Source: a virus
Taxonomy: Duplodnaviria > Heunggongvirae > Uroviricota > Caudoviricetes
IMG/VR virus record: IMGVR_UViG_2795385955_000003
Reading direction: 5' to 3' (one strand)
Length of the DNA: 64,000 nt
The notes beneath the pieces were generated by a model. The model saw only the letters and a program-made list of their open reading frames with translations, ran no database searches and was not told the DNA's origin. Below are positions 1,181-63,778 of this stretch, in pieces. Position 1 is the first letter of the stretch, and each line of letters starts with the position of its first letter. Made by a program: the position numbers and the translations under genes.

Positions 1181-1269
1181 GGAGGCGTGCCAGAGCGGCC
1201 GAATGGGACTCACTGCTAATGAGTTGTCCCCTTTACGGGGGACCGGAGGTTCAAATCCTCTCGCCTCCG
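1181..1269 (+). tRNA. tRNA-Ser (anticodon GCU), long variable arm
   Basis: Acceptor ggaggcg/cgcctcc, D-arm, anticodon loop cuGCUaa, long variable stem-loop, T-loop ttcaaat. Confidence 0.8.
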
Positions 1270-1317
1270 CGTCGGTCTGCAGGCCAAACCTGTTGACCTG
1301 CAACAATTGAATAGTAA

Positions 1318-1393
1318 GCGCCCGTAGCTCAACGGATAGAGCATCTGACTACGGATCAGAAGGTTAGGGGTTCGAATCCCTTCGGGCGCACCA
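1318..1393 (+). tRNA. tRNA-Arg (anticodon ACG), CCA encoded; probable prophage attachment site
   Basis: Cloverleaf gcgcccg/cgggcgc, D-arm gctcaacggatagagc, anticodon arm tctga-ctACGga-tcaga, T-loop ttcgaat, 3' CCA. Minus-strand phage ORF overlaps its 3' end. Confidence 0.85.
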
Positions 1394-24053: not shown

Positions 24054-24479
24054 ATGACTGATCAGAAGGTTTGGAAGTGGACCGGCGACAGCCGCGAGGA
24101 CAAGGCGAAACGTGTCGCCCTGTCCTATCGCCAGCTCCTTGAAGATGTCGCCGCCGGACGCATCACCGACCCCATGCAGGCCCTCATCGAACGCGACAGG
24201 TACTGGCAAGACCTCGGCGTCTACTGGTCGGTGCCATCCGTCGCCCCCATCGACCAGGAGGCGTGGTTGTCGGCCGCCGACCTCGTCATCCACCTCGCCC
24301 ACATAGTCCAGCTCACCGAGCACCAGGTCCGAAACTGGGCATACCGGCGACGAAAAGGACTGGGCGACGGCATAACCGAGCGCACCGGGCAGGAAGGAAA
24401 ACCGGAATACAACGTCGCTGACGTCCTGGCCTACCTCACCCGCCAACGCGTCCGCCGACAGGGAGGCACCAGCGCATGA
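24054..24479 (+). CDS. hypothetical protein
   Basis: ORF. Confidence 0.4.
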   Translation: MTDQKVWKWTGDSREDKAKRVALSYRQLLEDVAAGRITDPMQALIERDRYWQDLGVYWSVPSVAPIDQEAWLSAADLVIHLAHIVQLTEHQVRNWAYRRRKGLGDGITERTGQEGKPEYNVADVLAYLTRQRVRRQGGTSA

Positions 24480-26083: not shown

Positions 26084-26093
26084 GACTCAGAAT

Positions 26094-26109
26094 GTATAGT
26101 GCACTATAC
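26094..26109. promoter_or_regulatory. 16-bp perfect palindrome GTATAGTGCACTATAC: operator embedding divergent -10-like TATAGT hexamers
   Basis: Seen directly. Identical copy at 29602-29617. Additional GTATAG / GTATAC half-sites at 26142-26157. Confidence 0.5.
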
Positions 26110-26167
26110 GAAAGAACAAGCCGTAACGGCCTTGCTTATGTGTATAGCTTTGTATACGTTTCGAGTC

Positions 26168-26506
26168 ATGAAAAGCCTTTATGTAAAACGTATTGCCGTC
26201 ATGGGTGCCGCCATTGCCGCCCTAACGGCACTCCCAACTGCCACCGCTTCCGCGTTCCCGGAACGTTGCCTGTACGCCGCGACAGACGCCAAGACCTGCC
26301 TGGGTGCCCGACCGGCACCCTTCACGCCAGCAGGCGGCGGCGGATACAAGCCCCCGGAGGACCCGGAATGCCCCGAGGGCCAGCACCATCCACCTACAGC
26401 TCCGGCAAGTCCTGCCGCGGGCGAAACTGGAGGTAACAGCGCTGGTAGCGGGTCTGCCGGTAGCGGTGGGTCCTCGGCGAGTGGAGGGGCTGGTACCGGA
26501 AGGTGA
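26168..26506 (+). CDS. small secreted protein with Gly/Ser-rich C-terminus
   Basis: Signal peptide MKSLYVKRIAVMGAAIAALTALPTATASA. AT-rich 5' codons. GS-rich tail. Confidence 0.5.
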   Translation: MKSLYVKRIAVMGAAIAALTALPTATASAFPERCLYAATDAKTCLGARPAPFTPAGGGGYKPPEDPECPEGQHHPPTAPASPAAGETGGNSAGSGSAGSGGSSASGGAGTGR

Positions 26507-26560
26507 TGGTCGCGGCTACCGAGCGGCTATACAGCCAATCCCCAATTCTGTTGCCGCACC

Positions 26561-26590
26561 GCTATACCGCGGTATAGCTTCGTTTTCAGA
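26561..26590 (+). terminator. intrinsic terminator-like hairpin GCTATAC-CGCG-GTATAGC followed by CTTCGTTTTC
   Basis: 18-bp perfect palindrome then U-rich tract. Arms carry the same GTATAG/CTATAC half-site as the operator, in everted order. Confidence 0.45.
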
Positions 26591-26603
26591 CAACAAAACA
26601 GCG

Positions 26604-26728
26604 GACGACGTGAACAGGATGCAGGTCGGTTATCTCGGGGTACGCCCCCGTAGTTCAAGTTAGAACGCCCCGAGCCAAGCGGGGAAATGGAGCCAAACCC
26701 GCCCAGCGCCAACCACGTTCACGTCGTC
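26604..26728 (+). ncRNA. Y-RNA-like module A (Ro60-binding-type stem motif, non-tRNA-like interior)
   Basis: 12-bp closing stem GACGACGTGAAC/GTTCACGTCGTC. 5' strand carries shared motif GAACAGGATGCAGGTCGGTTATC. Internal hairpins. Confidence 0.4.
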
Positions 26729-26763
26729 CCCCAGACCACAACTACATAGACACCAGATGGTGC

Positions 26764-26886
26764 GAGCAGGACGCAGGTCGGTTACCACTTGCTAATGGAG
26801 AGGTCGCGGGTTCGAGTCCCGCCAGCCAGCCCCCGGCTGTAGCTCAGTTGGCAGAGCGCTAAACCCCGGTCAGCACACACACGTTC
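26764..26886 (+). ncRNA. Y-RNA-like module B with tRNA-like domain (T-arm, closed acceptor hairpin, D-arm)
   Basis: 5' motif GAGCAGGACGCAGGTCGGTTACC. T-arm gcggg-ttcgagt-cccgc. Acceptor strands cagccag/ccggctg joined by 2-nt linker. D-arm gctcagttggcagagc. 3' strand AACCCCGGTCAGCACACACACGTTC. Confidence 0.55.
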
Positions 26887-26925
26887 GCCCCATCACCCAA
26901 CACAACTCCATACATAACAAGGTGT

Positions 26926-27050
26926 GAACAGGACTTCGTTCGGTTATCTCCTTTCCCGAGAGAGACGCGGGTTCGAATCCCGTCAACCACGAAAGTGGTT
27001 GTAGCTCAGTGGCCTAGAGCGCTAAAACCCGGACGACACCCACACGCTCA
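26926..27050 (+). ncRNA. Y-RNA-like module C with tRNA-like domain
   Basis: 5' motif GAACAGGACTTCGTTCGGTTATC. T-loop ttcgaat. Acceptor hairpin caaccac-gaaa-gtggttg (7 bp perfect). D-arm gctcagtggcctagagc. Conserved 3' strand. Confidence 0.55.
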
Positions 27051-27092
27051 CACCACCTCAAACACCAGCAGACGCACGCGCGCAGGCGGTGT

Positions 27093-27222
27093 GGACAGGA
27101 CGCAGGTCGGTTACCAAAACAGTCAGGTGTGGGTTCGAGCCCCACCACCTCGCTCGCGGGGTGTAGCCCAATTGGTAGAGGCAATTGTCCACATACGCCG
27201 GTCAGCAGCCCACACGCCCACA
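27093..27222 (+). ncRNA. Y-RNA-like module D with tRNA-like domain
   Basis: 5' motif GGACAGGACGCAGGTCGGTTACC. T-arm gtggg-ttcgagc-cccac. Acceptor cacctcg-ctcg-cggggtg (one G.U). D-arm-like segment. 3' strand CGCCGGTCAGCAGCCCACACGCCC. Confidence 0.55.
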
Positions 27223-27257
27223 CCACCTACGCGCACGCACGACAGACAACCCGATGT

Positions 27258-27370
27258 GAACAGGACGCTCGGTCGGTTATCACTCAATTGGTAATGCAGG
27301 TTCAAGCCCTGTCGCCCGCACCCAGTGCGGGTGTAAAAGCGAAATCCCGGTCAGCACACACACGTTCACA
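27258..27370 (+). ncRNA. Y-RNA-like module E (T-arm plus closed acceptor hairpin, no D-arm)
   Basis: 5' motif GAACAGGACGCTCGGTCGGTTATC. T-arm cagg-ttcaagc-cctg. Hairpin cccgcac-cca-gtgcggg. 3' strand AAATCCCGGTCAGCACACACACGTTC. Confidence 0.5.
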
Positions 27371-27402
27371 TCACCCGCCCAATAGCCCCCCGCGGGTGGC
27401 AC

Positions 27403-27472
27403 GAGCAGGATCGCAGTCGGTTACCCCACCCCTCGCAAGGATGACGAACCCCGGCCGCCCTTCACACGTTCG
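27403..27472 (+). ncRNA. minimal Y-RNA-like module F (conserved stem strands only, ~20-nt interior)
   Basis: 5' motif GAGCAGGATCGCAGTCGGTTACC and 3' strand GAACCCCGGCCGCCCTTCACACGTTC with no tRNA-like insert. Immediately upstream of rsr. Confidence 0.35.
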
Positions 27473-27504
27473 CGCCGCCCGCACCTCTAACAAGGAGATG
27501 CACG

Positions 27505-29220
27505 GTGGACGTTCTCACCACTATCGGAACCCGTAAGACGCCGCAGTCGCAGCAGGCGGACCCCCGGCAGGTGAAGAACTCCGCTGGTGGCTACACCTTC
27601 ACCATCGACGACGAGGCCCTGCTGCACCGCTTCCTCACCCTCGGCACCGACGGCGGCACCTACTACACCAACGCCGCCGAACTCACCAGGGACACAGCGG
27701 CCGTCGTGCTCCGCGCAGCAGCGGCCGACCCGGTCCGCCTCGTCCAGCACATCGTCGAGGTGTCCGTGGATGGACGCGCACCCCGGCAGAACCCGGCCCT
27801 GTTCGCCCTCGCCATCGCCGCAGCAGCAGAGGACGTCGACGGCCGCCGCGCCGCCGCCGCAGCCCTGCCCACGGTCGCCCGTACCGGCACCCAGCTCTAC
27901 ACGTTCGTCAAGTACATGGAGCAGTTCCGCGGGTGGGGCCGCGCCATGCAGCGCGCCGTCGGTGGCTGGTACCTCGACAAGCCCGTCGACCGCCTCGCCT
28001 ACCAGCTGGTCAAGTACCGGCAGCGCGAAGGCTGGATGCACCGAGACCTCCTACGCCTGTCCGGCCCCACCACGGCGGACCCGGCCCGCCGCCTCGCCTT
28101 CAACTGGGCAGTCGGCAAGGGCCTGAACGACTACATCGGCAAGGTCCAGCCCCTCACCGCCGAGCAGTTGAAGGCAGGGGAGCGCAACGCCTCCCGACCC
28201 AAGCTGCCTAACGTCGAGCTGGCGGTTGACCACCCCCTTGCGATCATCGAGGACTTCGAGGACGCCCAGCGCGCCACCCAACCCAAGGAATGGGTGAGCA
28301 TCATCCGACGCGGCAACGGTCTTCCCTGGGAAGCGCTGCCAGACGTCGCGCTCAACTTCACGGCCGTGTGGGAAGCGCTGATTGAGCACGGGCTGCCGCA
28401 GACGGCTTTGATGCGCCAACTGCCTCGCCTGACCCGGCACGGAGTCCTACACGGTGAATATCTGGACCGTGTCGTAGCTCAGCTCCAGGACCCCGACCGC
28501 CTACGCAAGGGCCGCGTCCACCCAGTCAACGTCCTGATCGCTCAGCGCACCTACGCGTCCGGGCGGTCAGCGCGCGGCGACTCCACCTGGACACCGGAAC
28601 GCAAGGTCGTGGACGCCCTGGACGCCGCGTTCTACAACGCCTACGGCGCGGTAGAGCCGTCGGGCAAGCGCACCCTGCTGGCGCTGGACGTGTCCGGCTC
28701 CATGGGCGCCGCAATCTCAGGTATGCCGCTGACATGCCGCGAGGCCGCAGCCGCACTCGCACTCGTCACCGCCAATGTCGAGCCCGACCACGAGGTCGTC
28801 GGCTTCACCGACGGCCAGCAGGCATCCCGCATGGGTTACGGCTCCCCCTCCCGGCGGCTCATCTCCCCGCTGGACATCACACCGCGCCGTCGCCTCGACG
28901 ACGTGTGCCGGTACACCGCGAACCTCGCATTCGGCCGCACCGACTGCGCGCTCCCCATGCTGTGGGCGCAGAAGGCCAAGTGCGAGTTCGACACGTTCGT
29001 GGTCATCACCGACAACGAGACCTGGTTCGGCGACGTCCACCCGCACCAGGCGCTCCGCGACTACCGCAACAAGATGGGCATCAACGCCCGCCTGATCGTT
29101 GTCGGCATGACGGCAACCCGCTTTACCATCGCCGACCCCGCCGACCCCGGCCAGCTCGACGTGTCCGGTTTCGACTCAGCTGTCCCGCAGCTGATCTCGG
29201 ACTTCTCGGCCGGACTGTAG
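27505..29220 (+). CDS. rsr: Ro60 / Rsr ortholog (TROVE domain + von Willebrand A domain with MIDAS)
   Basis: N-terminal TROVE signature (GGYTFTIDDEALLHRFLTLGTDGGTYY). C-terminal vWA with DVSGSM MIDAS motif. RBS aaggag. 571 aa. Confidence 0.85.
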   Translation: MDVLTTIGTRKTPQSQQADPRQVKNSAGGYTFTIDDEALLHRFLTLGTDGGTYYTNAAELTRDTAAVVLRAAAADPVRLVQHIVEVSVDGRAPRQNPALFALAIAAAAEDVDGRRAAAAALPTVARTGTQLYTFVKYMEQFRGWGRAMQRAVGGWYLDKPVDRLAYQLVKYRQREGWMHRDLLRLSGPTTADPARRLAFNWAVGKGLNDYIGKVQPLTAEQLKAGERNASRPKLPNVELAVDHPLAIIEDFEDAQRATQPKEWVSIIRRGNGLPWEALPDVALNFTAVWEALIEHGLPQTALMRQLPRLTRHGVLHGEYLDRVVAQLQDPDRLRKGRVHPVNVLIAQRTYASGRSARGDSTWTPERKVVDALDAAFYNAYGAVEPSGKRTLLALDVSGSMGAAISGMPLTCREAAAALALVTANVEPDHEVVGFTDGQQASRMGYGSPSRRLISPLDITPRRRLDDVCRYTANLAFGRTDCALPMLWAQKAKCEFDTFVVITDNETWFGDVHPHQALRDYRNKMGINARLIVVGMTATRFTIADPADPGQLDVSGFDSAVPQLISDFSAGL

Positions 29221-29226
29221 GAACGC

Positions 29227-29457
29227 GTGGACCCAAGGGCACAGCAGGCGCGGGAGCATCACCGGTTGCAGCGTGATGCCTCCCGCGTCGGCGAACAACA
29301 CCGGTACGAACGGGACCGGCTAGTTCGCGAGCTATGGGCCACCGAACGAGAGAAGTGGACCTACGCCACGCTGGCCGCAGCGGTGACGTGCAGCCCGGGA
29401 CTGATCCAGAAGATTCTCGACGGCCGCACCCCAACCGCCCAACACGTCACCAGGTAA
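29227..29457 (+). CDS. small HTH DNA-binding protein
   Basis: C-terminal HTH WTYATLAAAVTCSPGLIQKIL. GTG start. Confidence 0.45.
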   Translation: MDPRAQQAREHHRLQRDASRVGEQHRYERDRLVRELWATEREKWTYATLAAAVTCSPGLIQKILDGRTPTAQHVTR

Positions 29458-29475
29458 GGAAGGCAGACGCCGCAA

Positions 29476-29588
29476 TGGATTTCAACACTCCGCTCCAGAG
29501 CCTGAACGGCTGGCCCGCCGCGGTCGTCGTTGTCGTTGCGGTGCTCTGCGTGACCGCCGTGATCATCGCGGTTATCCGCGCCGACTGA
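29476..29588 (+). CDS. small hydrophobic peptide (37 aa)
   Basis: GWPAAVVVVVAVLCVTAVIIAVI single TM. Short ORF, speculative. Confidence 0.25.
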
Positions 29589-29601
29589 CGCTCGACATAA
29601 C

Positions 29602-29617
29602 GTATAGTGCACTATAC
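29602..29617. promoter_or_regulatory. second copy of 16-bp palindrome GTATAGTGCACTATAC, 11 bp upstream of downstream operon ATG
   Basis: Identical to 26094-26109. Embeds TATAGT -10-like hexamer. Confidence 0.5.
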
Positions 29618-29627
29618 AGTTCGTGTT

Positions 29628-29963: not shown

Positions 29964-30350
29964 ATGAGCACACCCACCCCGCGCACCTTCGGCCTGGGCG
30001 CCATCCTGACCGTCACCACAGACGTGTTCCTGGTAGCCGACATCGGCGACATCTACGAACTCCTCAACTACATGACCGGCGACAACCTGTTCACCCACCA
30101 ACTGCCCCGCGCCGCAGGCGAATGCAAGCCAGCGCTGCTGGCACAACATCCTCAACTGGCCGACGTCGACATACCCGAACTGCCGGACGCCGACGCCTAC
30201 ATGACATGCCTGGCCAACCTGGAAAAAGTGCACGGCACCGAACTGGCCGTCACACCGCTTGCCGCGGGCGCGCACAGGCGCATCAATCCGTTGACCGAGC
30301 TAGCCGACATGATGCCCGGCAAGCCCATCATCACCGTGGTCGCACCATGA
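29964..30350 (+). CDS. hypothetical protein
   Basis: ORF. Confidence 0.45.
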   Translation: MSTPTPRTFGLGAILTVTTDVFLVADIGDIYELLNYMTGDNLFTHQLPRAAGECKPALLAQHPQLADVDIPELPDADAYMTCLANLEKVHGTELAVTPLAAGAHRRINPLTELADMMPGKPIITVVAP

Positions 30351-63616: not shown

Positions 63617-63778
63617 ATGACTACATTCACCATGCCTGAACTGCCCGGCATCACCTTCACCGCCGAGCGCGGCGGCCTGGACCCCGACGGAAAACTCAAC
63701 CCGTCCTGGATACAGATCACCGGCACCAACGACGCAGACGGTCAGATGGTCTCCTGCATAGGATTCGCCGGTCCGTAG
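63617..63778 (+). CDS. small hypothetical protein
   Basis: RBS gagagagg. Confidence 0.3.
   Translation: MTTFTMPELPGITFTAERGGLDPDGKLNPSWIQITGTNDADGQMVSCIGFAGP

Follow-up and report, generated by a model that had tools for sequence, protein, structure and literature searches.

Promoter-embedded dyads of two classes probably act as operators of accessory genes and of the Y-RNA/rsr operon in a Mycobacterium abscessus prophage

A 64,000-nucleotide stretch of Caudoviricetes DNA (IMG/VR record IMGVR_UViG_2795385955_000003; hereafter the window) carries Y RNAs and rsr, the gene for a Ro60 orthologue, bracketed by two copies of a perfect 16-bp palindrome, GTATAGTGCACTATAC. This arrangement raises the question of what the palindromes control and which protein reads them. 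The initial annotation proposed that they mark a small regulon around the Y-RNA/rsr module, under a dedicated dimeric helix-turn-helix (HTH) regulator. The comparative analysis described here supports, with moderate confidence, a broader answer: the 16-mers would be operators, two of six dyads of the form GTATAG-N4-[C/G/T]TATAC (class A), and a related dyad with everted half-sites, CTATAC-N4-GTATAG (class B), would control an operon of Y RNAs, rsr and a small HTH gene. By sequence comparison the window is part of a cluster MabK prophage of Mycobacterium abscessus, ~95% identical to prophiGD43A-5 and prophiT37-1. The left end of the prophage corresponds to window base 1357, and the window ends on the right within the tail/late genes, at approximately base 63,770 of prophiGD43A-5. 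The immunity of cluster MabK, to which both named prophages are assigned, is integration-dependent (PMC8092301, PMC9934374).

The two copies of GTATAGTGCACTATAC are exact (26094-26109 and 29602-29617), and the window contains no further match at up to three mismatches. With 0.07 matches expected, and at least two copies in 0 of 100 shuffles, the duplication is indeed far beyond chance, as first described. The hexamer GTATAG occurs four times in 64 kb, at 26094, 26142, 26572 and 29602, and the looser core TATAS-N4-STATA is found at 26095, 26143, 26563 and 29603 only (0.27 expected; at least four in 0 of 100 shuffles). The window therefore holds four dyads against ~0.3-0.5 expected. Three belong to class A and are named O1 (the left 16-mer), O3 and O2 (the right 16-mer); the fourth is the class B dyad (Table 1). 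The sequences at 26142-26157, noted earlier as extra half-sites, are present but form a complete dyad, O3. All four sites, and all seven of prophiGD43A-5, have a 6-N4-6 layout with half-site centres 10 bp apart. The spacing to a start codon is 10 bases at both 16-mers (minus-strand ATG 26083 for the left copy, plus-strand ATG 29628 for the right copy). The wide search for the 16-mer and its half-sites that the initial annotation called for thus returned two 16-mers and four dyads in the window, all at promoter-like positions.

To avoid circularity, the loci used to assess conservation were retrieved through Rsr protein homology and not through the dyad motif. They comprise prophiGD43A-5, prophiT37-1 and 11-12 further M. 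abscessus prophage contigs, or 13-14 genomes in all. In these relatives the central four bases of the dyads vary between constant half-sites, GTATAG and CTATAC. Read in the orientation of brnT, O1 carries TGCA, TGCG or TGAA (14 genomes); O2, the site of the gp55-like gene, carries TGCA, CAGA, CGAA, CGCA or CGGA (13 genomes); and O3, the site of the secreted-protein gene, carries CTTT, CTCT, CGCT, TTCT or CTCG (14 genomes). Exact identity of the two 16-mers is seen in this window only, the central four bases being unlike between the sites in 14 related genomes. A hexamer TAC[A/G][T/G]T overlapping the right half-site is invariant in the relatives as well.

The most variable site, O2 within promoter P2, displays this pattern in full among the Rsr-ascertained genomes. 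The -35 element TCGAC, both half-sites, the hexamer TACAGT and the ATG are invariant, whereas variation occurs at 3-4 bases after the -35 element, at three positions of the central tetranucleotide and throughout the 7-nt stretch from hexamer to ATG. None of the 15 functional columns varies, against 13 of the 15 others (Fisher p = 8.8e-7). Conservation of this kind is the trace expected of a protein-binding site embedded in a promoter. The proposal of a dedicated dimeric HTH regulator is upheld to the extent that the dyads behave like operators, with invariant half-sites, a varying spacer and 10-bp centres; a single regulator for all sites is not favoured, for reasons set out below.

The positions of the dyads relative to candidate promoters are equally regular. 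At all four window sites the last three nucleotides of the right half-site are the first three of a TANNNT hexamer, and the dyad spans approximately -25 to -10 of the corresponding promoter (P1-P4). Each dyad would accordingly fill the spacer of a sigma-A-type promoter and overlap the first three bases of its -10 element. A consensus scan independently calls P2, with 9/12 matches. The initial annotation had placed the -10 element elsewhere, in the internal TATAGT. This candidate was rejected: at the gp55 and secreted-protein sites most relatives read TATAGC, so that TATAGT is not conserved there, and it would also leave a short leader without a ribosome-binding site. Nor does the first 16-mer appear to serve the divergent secreted-protein gene, as had been supposed, given that a separate dyad, O3, precedes the start of this gene at ATG 26168. 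A hairpin at 26118-26132, between P1 and P3, was considered and dropped, as it is not conserved in relatives.

The heptamers preceding the ATG at P1, P3 and P2 (CTGAGTC, TCGAGTC and TCGTGTT) contain no GGAGG-like motif, unlike the antitoxin and rsr genes, which have clear Shine-Dalgarno sequences. All three promoters read TACNNT, 7 nt and ATG, within the 6-8 nt expected between a TANNNT hexamer and the start codon of a leaderless unit. Because a Shine-Dalgarno sequence is absent and the -10 element lies 7 nt before the ATG, the mRNAs from P1, P3 and P2 are predicted to be leaderless; leaderless mRNAs are common in mycobacteria. The homologous brnT promoter of Gordonia phage Eyre reads TTGACT-N18-TATACT-N6-ATG and has no dyad, which suggests that the operator was added to a pre-existing leaderless promoter. 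In Eyre (L063 2460-2505) the TTG annotated as the BrnT-like toxin start (2465) falls on the -35 hexamer TTGACT; a tblastn match together with TATACT-N6-ATG suggests a leaderless start at ATG 2501.

Complete prophages enlarge the regulon. With the core TRTA-N6-TAYA, prophiGD43A-5 (76.5 kb) and prophiT37-1 each yield seven sites and none elsewhere, such that a MabK prophage has six class A dyads and one class B dyad. The three sites beyond the window are all class A, lie in the right arm and are kept in every MabK relative whose retrieved DNA spanned those positions. The original picture of two 16-mers around the Y-RNA/rsr locus therefore holds for the accessory promoters that flank the module and falls short in number, the set comprising four dyads in the window and seven in a complete prophage. 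A MabK variant (L084/L106) lacks the brnT cassette and retains class A sites at four other promoters. Searches of other phages for class A dyads returned MabK relatives only, along with chance-level singletons in low-GC or unrelated contigs.

Several observations accompany these sites. Eleven IMG/VR contigs of 43-52% GC share CGTATAG-N4-CTATACAAT-N7-ATGCC(C/G)TAGC. These unrelated environmental viral contigs have the same dyad/-10/start geometry on a different sequence background, a design that may have been adopted in parallel, or a single phage family may have been picked up by chance. In the right arm, L062 42201-42560 and L070 40191-40570 are the same DNA, annotated as minus-strand gene 114 in prophiGD43A-5 and as plus-strand gene 107 in prophiT37-1; the rightward orientation of the class A promoter there, TCGACA-17-TACGTT, favours gene 107. 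Gene 115 of prophiGD43A-5 (L062 42715-43899, outside the window) lies behind a class A promoter and encodes 394 aa with no Pfam family. Homologues at 42-55% identity are present in ~245 phage records, among them those of large lytic mycobacteriophages and of a cyanophage. The genomic surroundings of gp115 and gp55 homologues in other phages were uninformative.

The class B dyad lies ahead of the Y RNAs. The module has the features of a bacterial Rsr/Y-RNA system, namely a TROVE-type Ro60 orthologue with adjacent YrlA-like RNAs: homologues of the window Rsr (e.g. L071) carry TROVE and vWA_Ro60 Pfam domains, and the Rfam YrlA model matches at 26778-26891, 26964-27020 and 27104-27207 with E values of 3.5e-6 to 4e-3 and 38.9, 28.8 and 28.5 bits, against a gathering score of 69. 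One Y-RNA unit is overlapped by a 'tRNA-Thr (tgt)' annotated in prophiGD43A-5 (L001 5683-5761, ~window 26753-26831). ARAGORN finds no tRNA at that position, and what was annotated there probably corresponds to a Y RNA's tRNA-like domain.

The initial annotation read 26561-26578 as a terminator containing the same half-sites everted. The everted half-sites are there; a primary terminator role looks weak, for the T-tract is not conserved and the equivalents in other lineages overlap a -10 element just before a Y RNA. The site is better read as the candidate promoter/operator of the Y-RNA/rsr/HTH operon. No base of the dyad differs among 14 MabK genomes, and another M. abscessus variant has CGTG as its central four bases. 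In ~15 phage and chromosomal lineages a 6-N4-6 dyad, usually CTGTAN-N4-NTACAG, overlaps a TACAGT/TATAGT -10 element, 17 nt after a TTGnnn and ~15-25 nt before the first Y RNA. Examples are CTGTAC-TGCG-GTACAG in phage Sparky, CTGTAA-CTGC-TTACAG in Nocardia puris and CTGTAT-CGCG-TTACAG in a Pseudonocardia chromosome; in these and others the promoter reads TTGnnn-N16/17-TACAGT, in the same register as P4. The central four bases differ in each of the ~15 lineages, and each ~10-kb locus has exactly one dyad match, where 0.03-0.08 are expected. From this distribution we infer that class B is the ancestral form of the element. In the literature open to search, neither 16-mer appears, nor does the dyad of Sparky.

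The 5' end of M. smegmatis YrlA used in PMC4201824 lies 12 nt before GTGAGCCG. Judging from the primer sequence, it corresponds to the position of a start 7-8 nt after TACAGT in the homologous loci. In the lytic cluster C1 phage LinStu (L069 2436-2470) the Y-RNA promoter reads TTGTGG-N17-TATAGT with an imperfect repeat, CTATAG-AACAT-GTATAG.

One protein travels with this operator. A homologue of the 76-aa HTH protein encoded just after rsr (gp53 of prophiGD43A-5) lies directly downstream of rsr, or one gene further, at every rsr locus retrieved from IMG/VR, Logan, GTDB and NCBI. These contexts include Sparky, the Gordonia phages Cashline and BearBQ, Nocardia puris, a Pseudonocardiaceae metagenome-assembled genome, a Pseudonocardia chromosome, Actinophytocola, M. 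fortuitum and many metagenomic phages. A family profile search gathers 703 protein clusters, all of 67-90 aa and none informatively named. An AlphaFold2 model of the window protein (pLDDT 81) has a long helix at 3-39 followed by an HTH at 46-53 and 57-65. The window protein has both family motifs, an N-terminal RAQQAREHH and a C-terminal WTY..LA.AV.CSP.LI..I HTH. The string D-x-R-A-Q-Q-A-R-E-H-H (window 29227-29260 and homologues) is invariant in all lineages and conserved above the HTH itself, which suggests a second function, for example a partner or ligand contact. Many family members give a weak match to PF12824 (mitochondrial ribosomal protein L20), and a yeast mitoribosome chain is among the non-significant Foldseek matches; this resemblance is probably generic helical similarity.

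Covariation between the recognition helix and the half-site offers the strongest indirect evidence that this family would read the class B dyad. Among the best 120 family members the helix is almost always CSP-E-LI-A-x-I, and every lineage carrying it has half-sites CTGTA. In the MabK clade the helix is CSP-Q/G-LI-Q-KI, with CTATAC, and a separate clade (L120, L122, L124 and L126) has CSP-Q-LI-A-H/Y-I with CTATAA-N4-TTATAG. When the helix is masked, each Q-type clade is nearest to E-type proteins and not to the other Q-type clade, from which it follows that the Glu-to-Gln and the half-site G-to-A changes occurred together at least twice. Glu-cytosine and Gln-adenine are the usual amino-acid/base preferences. 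The survey of bacterial Y RNAs mentions no such regulator (PMC4201824), and the rsr-linked small HTH protein and its putative operator apparently form a widespread, undescribed regulator-operator pair in Actinobacteria and their phages.

The same comparison separates the two classes. All 12 class A half-sites have G as their outermost base, nearly all of the family's class B half-sites have C, without mixing, and the innermost half-site base is free in both; the outer-base difference points to two specificities. The 76-aa protein, suggested earlier as a regulator of the 16-mers, remains a good candidate for a DNA-binding regulator, but the comparative evidence links it to the everted site instead, and it most likely binds class B. 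For class A the chances are nearly even that the binder is gp109 of prophiGD43A-5, a second small protein (73 aa) whose gene lies ~5 kb past the right end of the window and whose own, predicted leaderless promoter carries a class A dyad. Its predicted helices (3-45, 50-56 and 61-69; pLDDT 77) repeat the plan of the 76-aa protein, a long helix followed by a C-terminal HTH. The gp109 C-terminus weakly resembles a resolvase DNA-binding domain (E 0.29), and its Foldseek matches in the PDB are non-significant. Both gp109 and the class A sites are confined to MabK-type prophages of M. abscessus.

The preferred mechanism can be stated as follows. Because the half-site centres are 10 bp apart, a dimeric HTH protein on both half-sites would occupy one face of the DNA, blocking RNA polymerase. 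The 76-aa protein would be an autorepressor acting at the class B dyad, over the Y-RNA array, rsr and its own gene, and this pairing would represent the ancestral rsr control circuit in Actinobacteria and their phages. The second small protein, gp109, would read the class A sites, whose promoters would drive the brnT-like toxin operon, the small secreted protein and the gp55-like gene string. A further and rather speculative extension, which we regard as quite unlikely, is that the small HTH protein is a feedback sensor whose RAQQAREHH helix reads the state of Rsr, Y RNA or damaged RNA and releases the CTGTA/CTATA operator, the circuit having been duplicated in MabK as gp109 with class A so that the toxin-antitoxin genes, the secreted protein and other lysogeny cassettes fire with or against the Ro/Y-RNA response.

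A number of observations weigh against this mechanism. The match of the 76-aa protein to Pfam HTH_31 is weak (E 9e-4, under the Pfam cut-off), Foldseek against the PDB returns generic HTH regulators at non-significant scores, and a sequence search of solved structures returned nothing for the family. LinStu has rsr and a Y RNA with no detectable small-HTH homologue nearby, yet it shows a partial CTATAG-N5-GTATAGT repeat; because this TATA-rich repeat remains at its Y-RNA promoter, LinStu is an imperfect negative control. One Q-type lineage (L072, L085-L087) has a half-dyad only, CATTAC-TGAG-GTATAG. Wherever the retrieved DNA spanned its position gp109 accompanies the class A sites, and the 76-aa protein is always present too, so presence and absence do not separate the two proteins. 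The TATA core is self-complementary and the classes differ only at flanking bases, such that one tolerant protein could bind both. Finally, RNA-seq of strain GD43A is on record (GSE161710; PMC8092301) and is described as showing prophiGD43A-5 mostly silent in lysogens except for the toxin-immunity locus (PMC8092301). That silence fits repression and is described prophage-wide, not at these promoters.

The most serious alternative is that the 76-aa protein would bind all seven dyads, and gp109 would merely be a member of the regulon. The identical TATA core and 10-bp spacing across classes and the free inner flanking base speak for such a single regulator, which is the sole predicted DNA-binding protein encoded inside the window cluster. 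An additional A-to-Q change in the MabK recognition helix, found in this lineage only, could broaden its specificity, and the long helix and short linker before the HTH could give some flexibility. We nevertheless consider this unlikely, as nearly every class B half-site has kept C as its outer base over large evolutionary distances, against G throughout class A, the L072/L085-L087 lineage has a 76-aa-type protein and no class A dyads in the 9.7-16 kb examined, and gp109 has a class A site of its own, as expected of an autoregulator. That the reader is instead a host M. abscessus regulator, the 141-aa HTH protein at 24054-24479, the TetR-like gene product near the integrase or the immunity repressor is improbable. 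Several further DNA-binding proteins are indeed annotated in the prophage, but their genes have no dyad at their own promoters, and the repressor/excise intergenic region (~1500-1818) has none. The immunity repressor, a candidate in the initial annotation, was rejected on the same grounds, there being no dyad or half-site pair in 1300-2000 and no dyad in the first 21 kb of prophiGD43A-5. Moreover, the class B dyad accompanies the rsr-HTH pair in unrelated phages and chromosomes with no other gene in common, which argues for a binder encoded by the module.

Other explanations dispense with a dedicated repressor. Duplication of a promoter cassette, with symmetry that binds nothing or that reflects bidirectional -10 elements, would account for the shared upstream sequences (CTCGACAnAAC at sites 2 and 6; TTGCYT at sites 3, 5 and 7) and for site 6, a 22-bp perfect palindrome with TACGTT on both strands. 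It is decidedly improbable in light of the left half-site, which at ~ -25 to -20 lies in no sigma-A contact region and is as invariant as the -10 element while its neighbours vary freely; the Eyre brnT promoter, moreover, keeps the same -35/-10 register without a dyad, and the helix/half-site covariation requires a protein reader. RNA hairpins, with 26561-26578 terminating the secreted-protein gene and the 16-mers forming 5' stem-loops, are very improbable. A terminator scan does report 26561-26578 (tail TTCGTTTTCA, a 7-bp stem with three G-C pairs, -9.2 kcal/mol), and a secondary role against read-through from the secreted-protein gene is possible; the interrupted T-tract, however, is not conserved in relatives (TTCGTGTTC, TTCGTTTAC), and the equivalents in other lineages overlap the -10 element just before the Y RNA without any T-tract. 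At -5 to -6 kcal/mol the class A hairpins have little stability, and their position ahead of the predicted starts would keep them out of the mRNAs. Type II toxin-antitoxin systems are normally autoregulated, and the first 16-mer sits on a toxin-antitoxin promoter; even so, we give almost no credence to the antitoxin or its complex as the binder. The 64-aa antitoxin stops after one helix and lacks the second, C-terminal ribbon-helix-helix helix of the 102-aa Eyre BrnA, Eyre itself has no dyad, and a dyad is found at six other promoters. The antitoxin was rejected for this truncation and for the persistence of four class A sites in L084/L106 without the cassette.

The coordinates of these elements and of the genes around them are collected in Table 1. 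The BrnT-like toxin has no Pfam match at E < 0.1, and the 112-aa secreted protein is unannotated in either GenBank relative. Two tRNA genes (window 1181-1390) lie at the left prophage junction, which fits the tRNA attB integration described for MabK (PMC8092301).

Table 1. Dyads, candidate promoters and genes of the Y-RNA/rsr region, with the class A sites of the right arm (window coordinates)
Feature	Coordinates	Strand	Remarks
Third gene of leftward operon, 111 aa	25309..25644	-	Function unassigned; PHROG 30044, E 4e-32; GTGA overlap with antitoxin stop
Putative antitoxin, 64 aa	25641..25835	-	ATGA overlap with toxin stop; strong Shine-Dalgarno sequence
BrnT-like toxin, 83 aa	25832..26083	-	PHROG 36779 'toxin', E 4e-35; GenBank annotation of 98% identical homologues
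Candidate promoter P1	26084..26119	-	-35 TTGTTC (26114-26119), 17 nt, -10 TACATT (26091-26096), 7 nt, ATG 26083
Class A dyad O1	26094..26109	.	GTATAG-TGCA-CTATAC; exact match; in spacer and -10 of leftward brnT promoter
Candidate promoter P3	26132..26170	+	-35 TTGCTT (26132-26137), 17 nt, -10 TACGTT (26155-26160), 7 nt, ATG 26168
Class A dyad O3	26142..26157	.	GTATAG-CTTT-GTATAC; half-sites invariant, N4 variable in 14 genomes
Small secreted protein, 112 aa	26168..26506	+	N-terminal signal peptide, Gly/Ser-rich tail; conserved in relatives
Candidate promoter P4	26551..26580	+	-35 TTGCCG (26551-26556), 18 nt, -10 TAGCTT (26575-26580); predicted start ~26588; Y-RNA array
Class B dyad	26562..26577	.	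CTATAC-CGCG-GTATAG (CTATACCGCGGTATAG); proposed operator of Y-RNA/rsr/HTH operon
YrlA-like Y-RNA array, ~6 units	26611..27470	+	Repeated GAACAGGAYGCAGGTCGGTTAYC ... CCGGTCAGCACAC units visible
rsr (Ro60/TROVE orthologue), 571 aa	27505..29220	+	'Ro-like RNA binding protein' in 95% identical relatives
Small HTH protein, 76 aa (gp53 of prophiGD43A-5)	29227..29457	+	6 nt after rsr stop; proposed class B repressor
Predicted membrane peptide, 37 aa	29475..29588	+	From translation; annotated in relatives
Candidate promoter P2	29592..29630	+	-35 TCGACA (29592-29597), 17 nt, -10 TACAGT (29615-29620), 7 nt, ATG 29628
Class A dyad O2	29602..29617	.	GTATAG-TGCA-CTATAC; exact match; half-sites invariant in 13 genomes
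gp55-like gene, 109 aa	29628..29957	+	Function unassigned; PHROG 14658, E 5e-13; heads rightward gene string
DUF7736 protein	29964..30350	+	E 6e-25; next after gp55-like gene, followed by further unknowns
Extra class A site			Upstream of gene 109 (73 aa); TATACT-N6-ATG, leaderless geometry
Extra class A site (site 6)			Divergent intergenic region; 22-bp perfect palindrome AACGTATAGCGCGCTATACGTT, TACGTT on both strands
Extra class A site			Upstream of gene 115; right arm

To the extent of our knowledge, the switching-on of Ro60 (Rsr) and Y RNAs in bacteria is understood only for the enteric RtcR/sigma-54 system. A ~70-aa protein and a defined candidate operator beside rsr, in a family of ~700 protein clusters, thus offer a concrete handle on Rsr/Y-RNA control, including a predicted specificity switch in which Glu goes with CTGTA and Gln with CTATA. 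The dyads also mark accessory promoters of M. abscessus prophages (toxin-antitoxin, secreted protein and genes near a polymorphic-toxin locus) that are likely co-regulated in lysogens. M. abscessus is an important and hard-to-treat pathogen, and such co-regulation bears on prophage-conferred phenotypes and on phage therapy. The compact, predicted leaderless promoter/operator cassettes might in addition serve as parts for regulated expression in mycobacteria.

Comparison with known systems places these elements among familiar designs. Phage Cro/CI operators and TetR at tetO share with them the inverted repeat with 10-bp centres, the unconserved spacer, an operator over the -10 element and a regulator encoded in the operon of its own operator, an arrangement that implies autoregulation. 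The predicted binders differ in being ~75-aa proteins with one long N-terminal helix and an HTH at the extreme C-terminus; both small proteins lack an above-threshold Pfam match and a relative of known structure, and in the rsr-linked family RAQQAREHH is conserved above the HTH. In the integration-dependent immunity systems of BPs and Brujita, 12-bp palindromes are bound by the immunity repressor. These operators are likewise short palindromes reused at several promoters of a temperate mycobacteriophage, and MabK has the same immunity type (PMC8092301), but the dyads described here are absent from the repressor/early-promoter region, lie on accessory promoters and track rsr into non-phage chromosomes. 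The stoperators of cluster A and MabJ are asymmetric 13-14 bp motifs, present in tens of copies per genome with an orientation bias in transcribed regions and bound by a monomeric immunity repressor (PMC9283540; PMC9934374). They too are short motifs repeated within one phage genome; here, in contrast, there are seven symmetric copies, all intergenic and at promoters.

Cluster K mycobacteriophages have start-associated sequences, which lack symmetry and contain the ribosome-binding site. Like the present sites, these sequences stand at a fixed short distance before several start codons; here the element is a dyad without a ribosome-binding site, and the fixed distance to the ATG would arise because the -10 element is positioned for leaderless transcription. 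Autoregulation of BrnTA also places an operator over a toxin-first promoter, but here the DNA-binding domain of the antitoxin is incomplete and the same operator serves unrelated genes and persists without the toxin-antitoxin cassette. In the rsr-yrlBA-rtcBA operon of Salmonella, RtcR is a large sigma-54 activator encoded divergently. Both systems devote a factor to an operon with rsr and Y RNAs, whereas the ~70-aa HTH protein downstream of rsr probably represses a sigma-A promoter. The type of mechanism, an HTH repressor acting on a promoter-embedded dyad, is classical.

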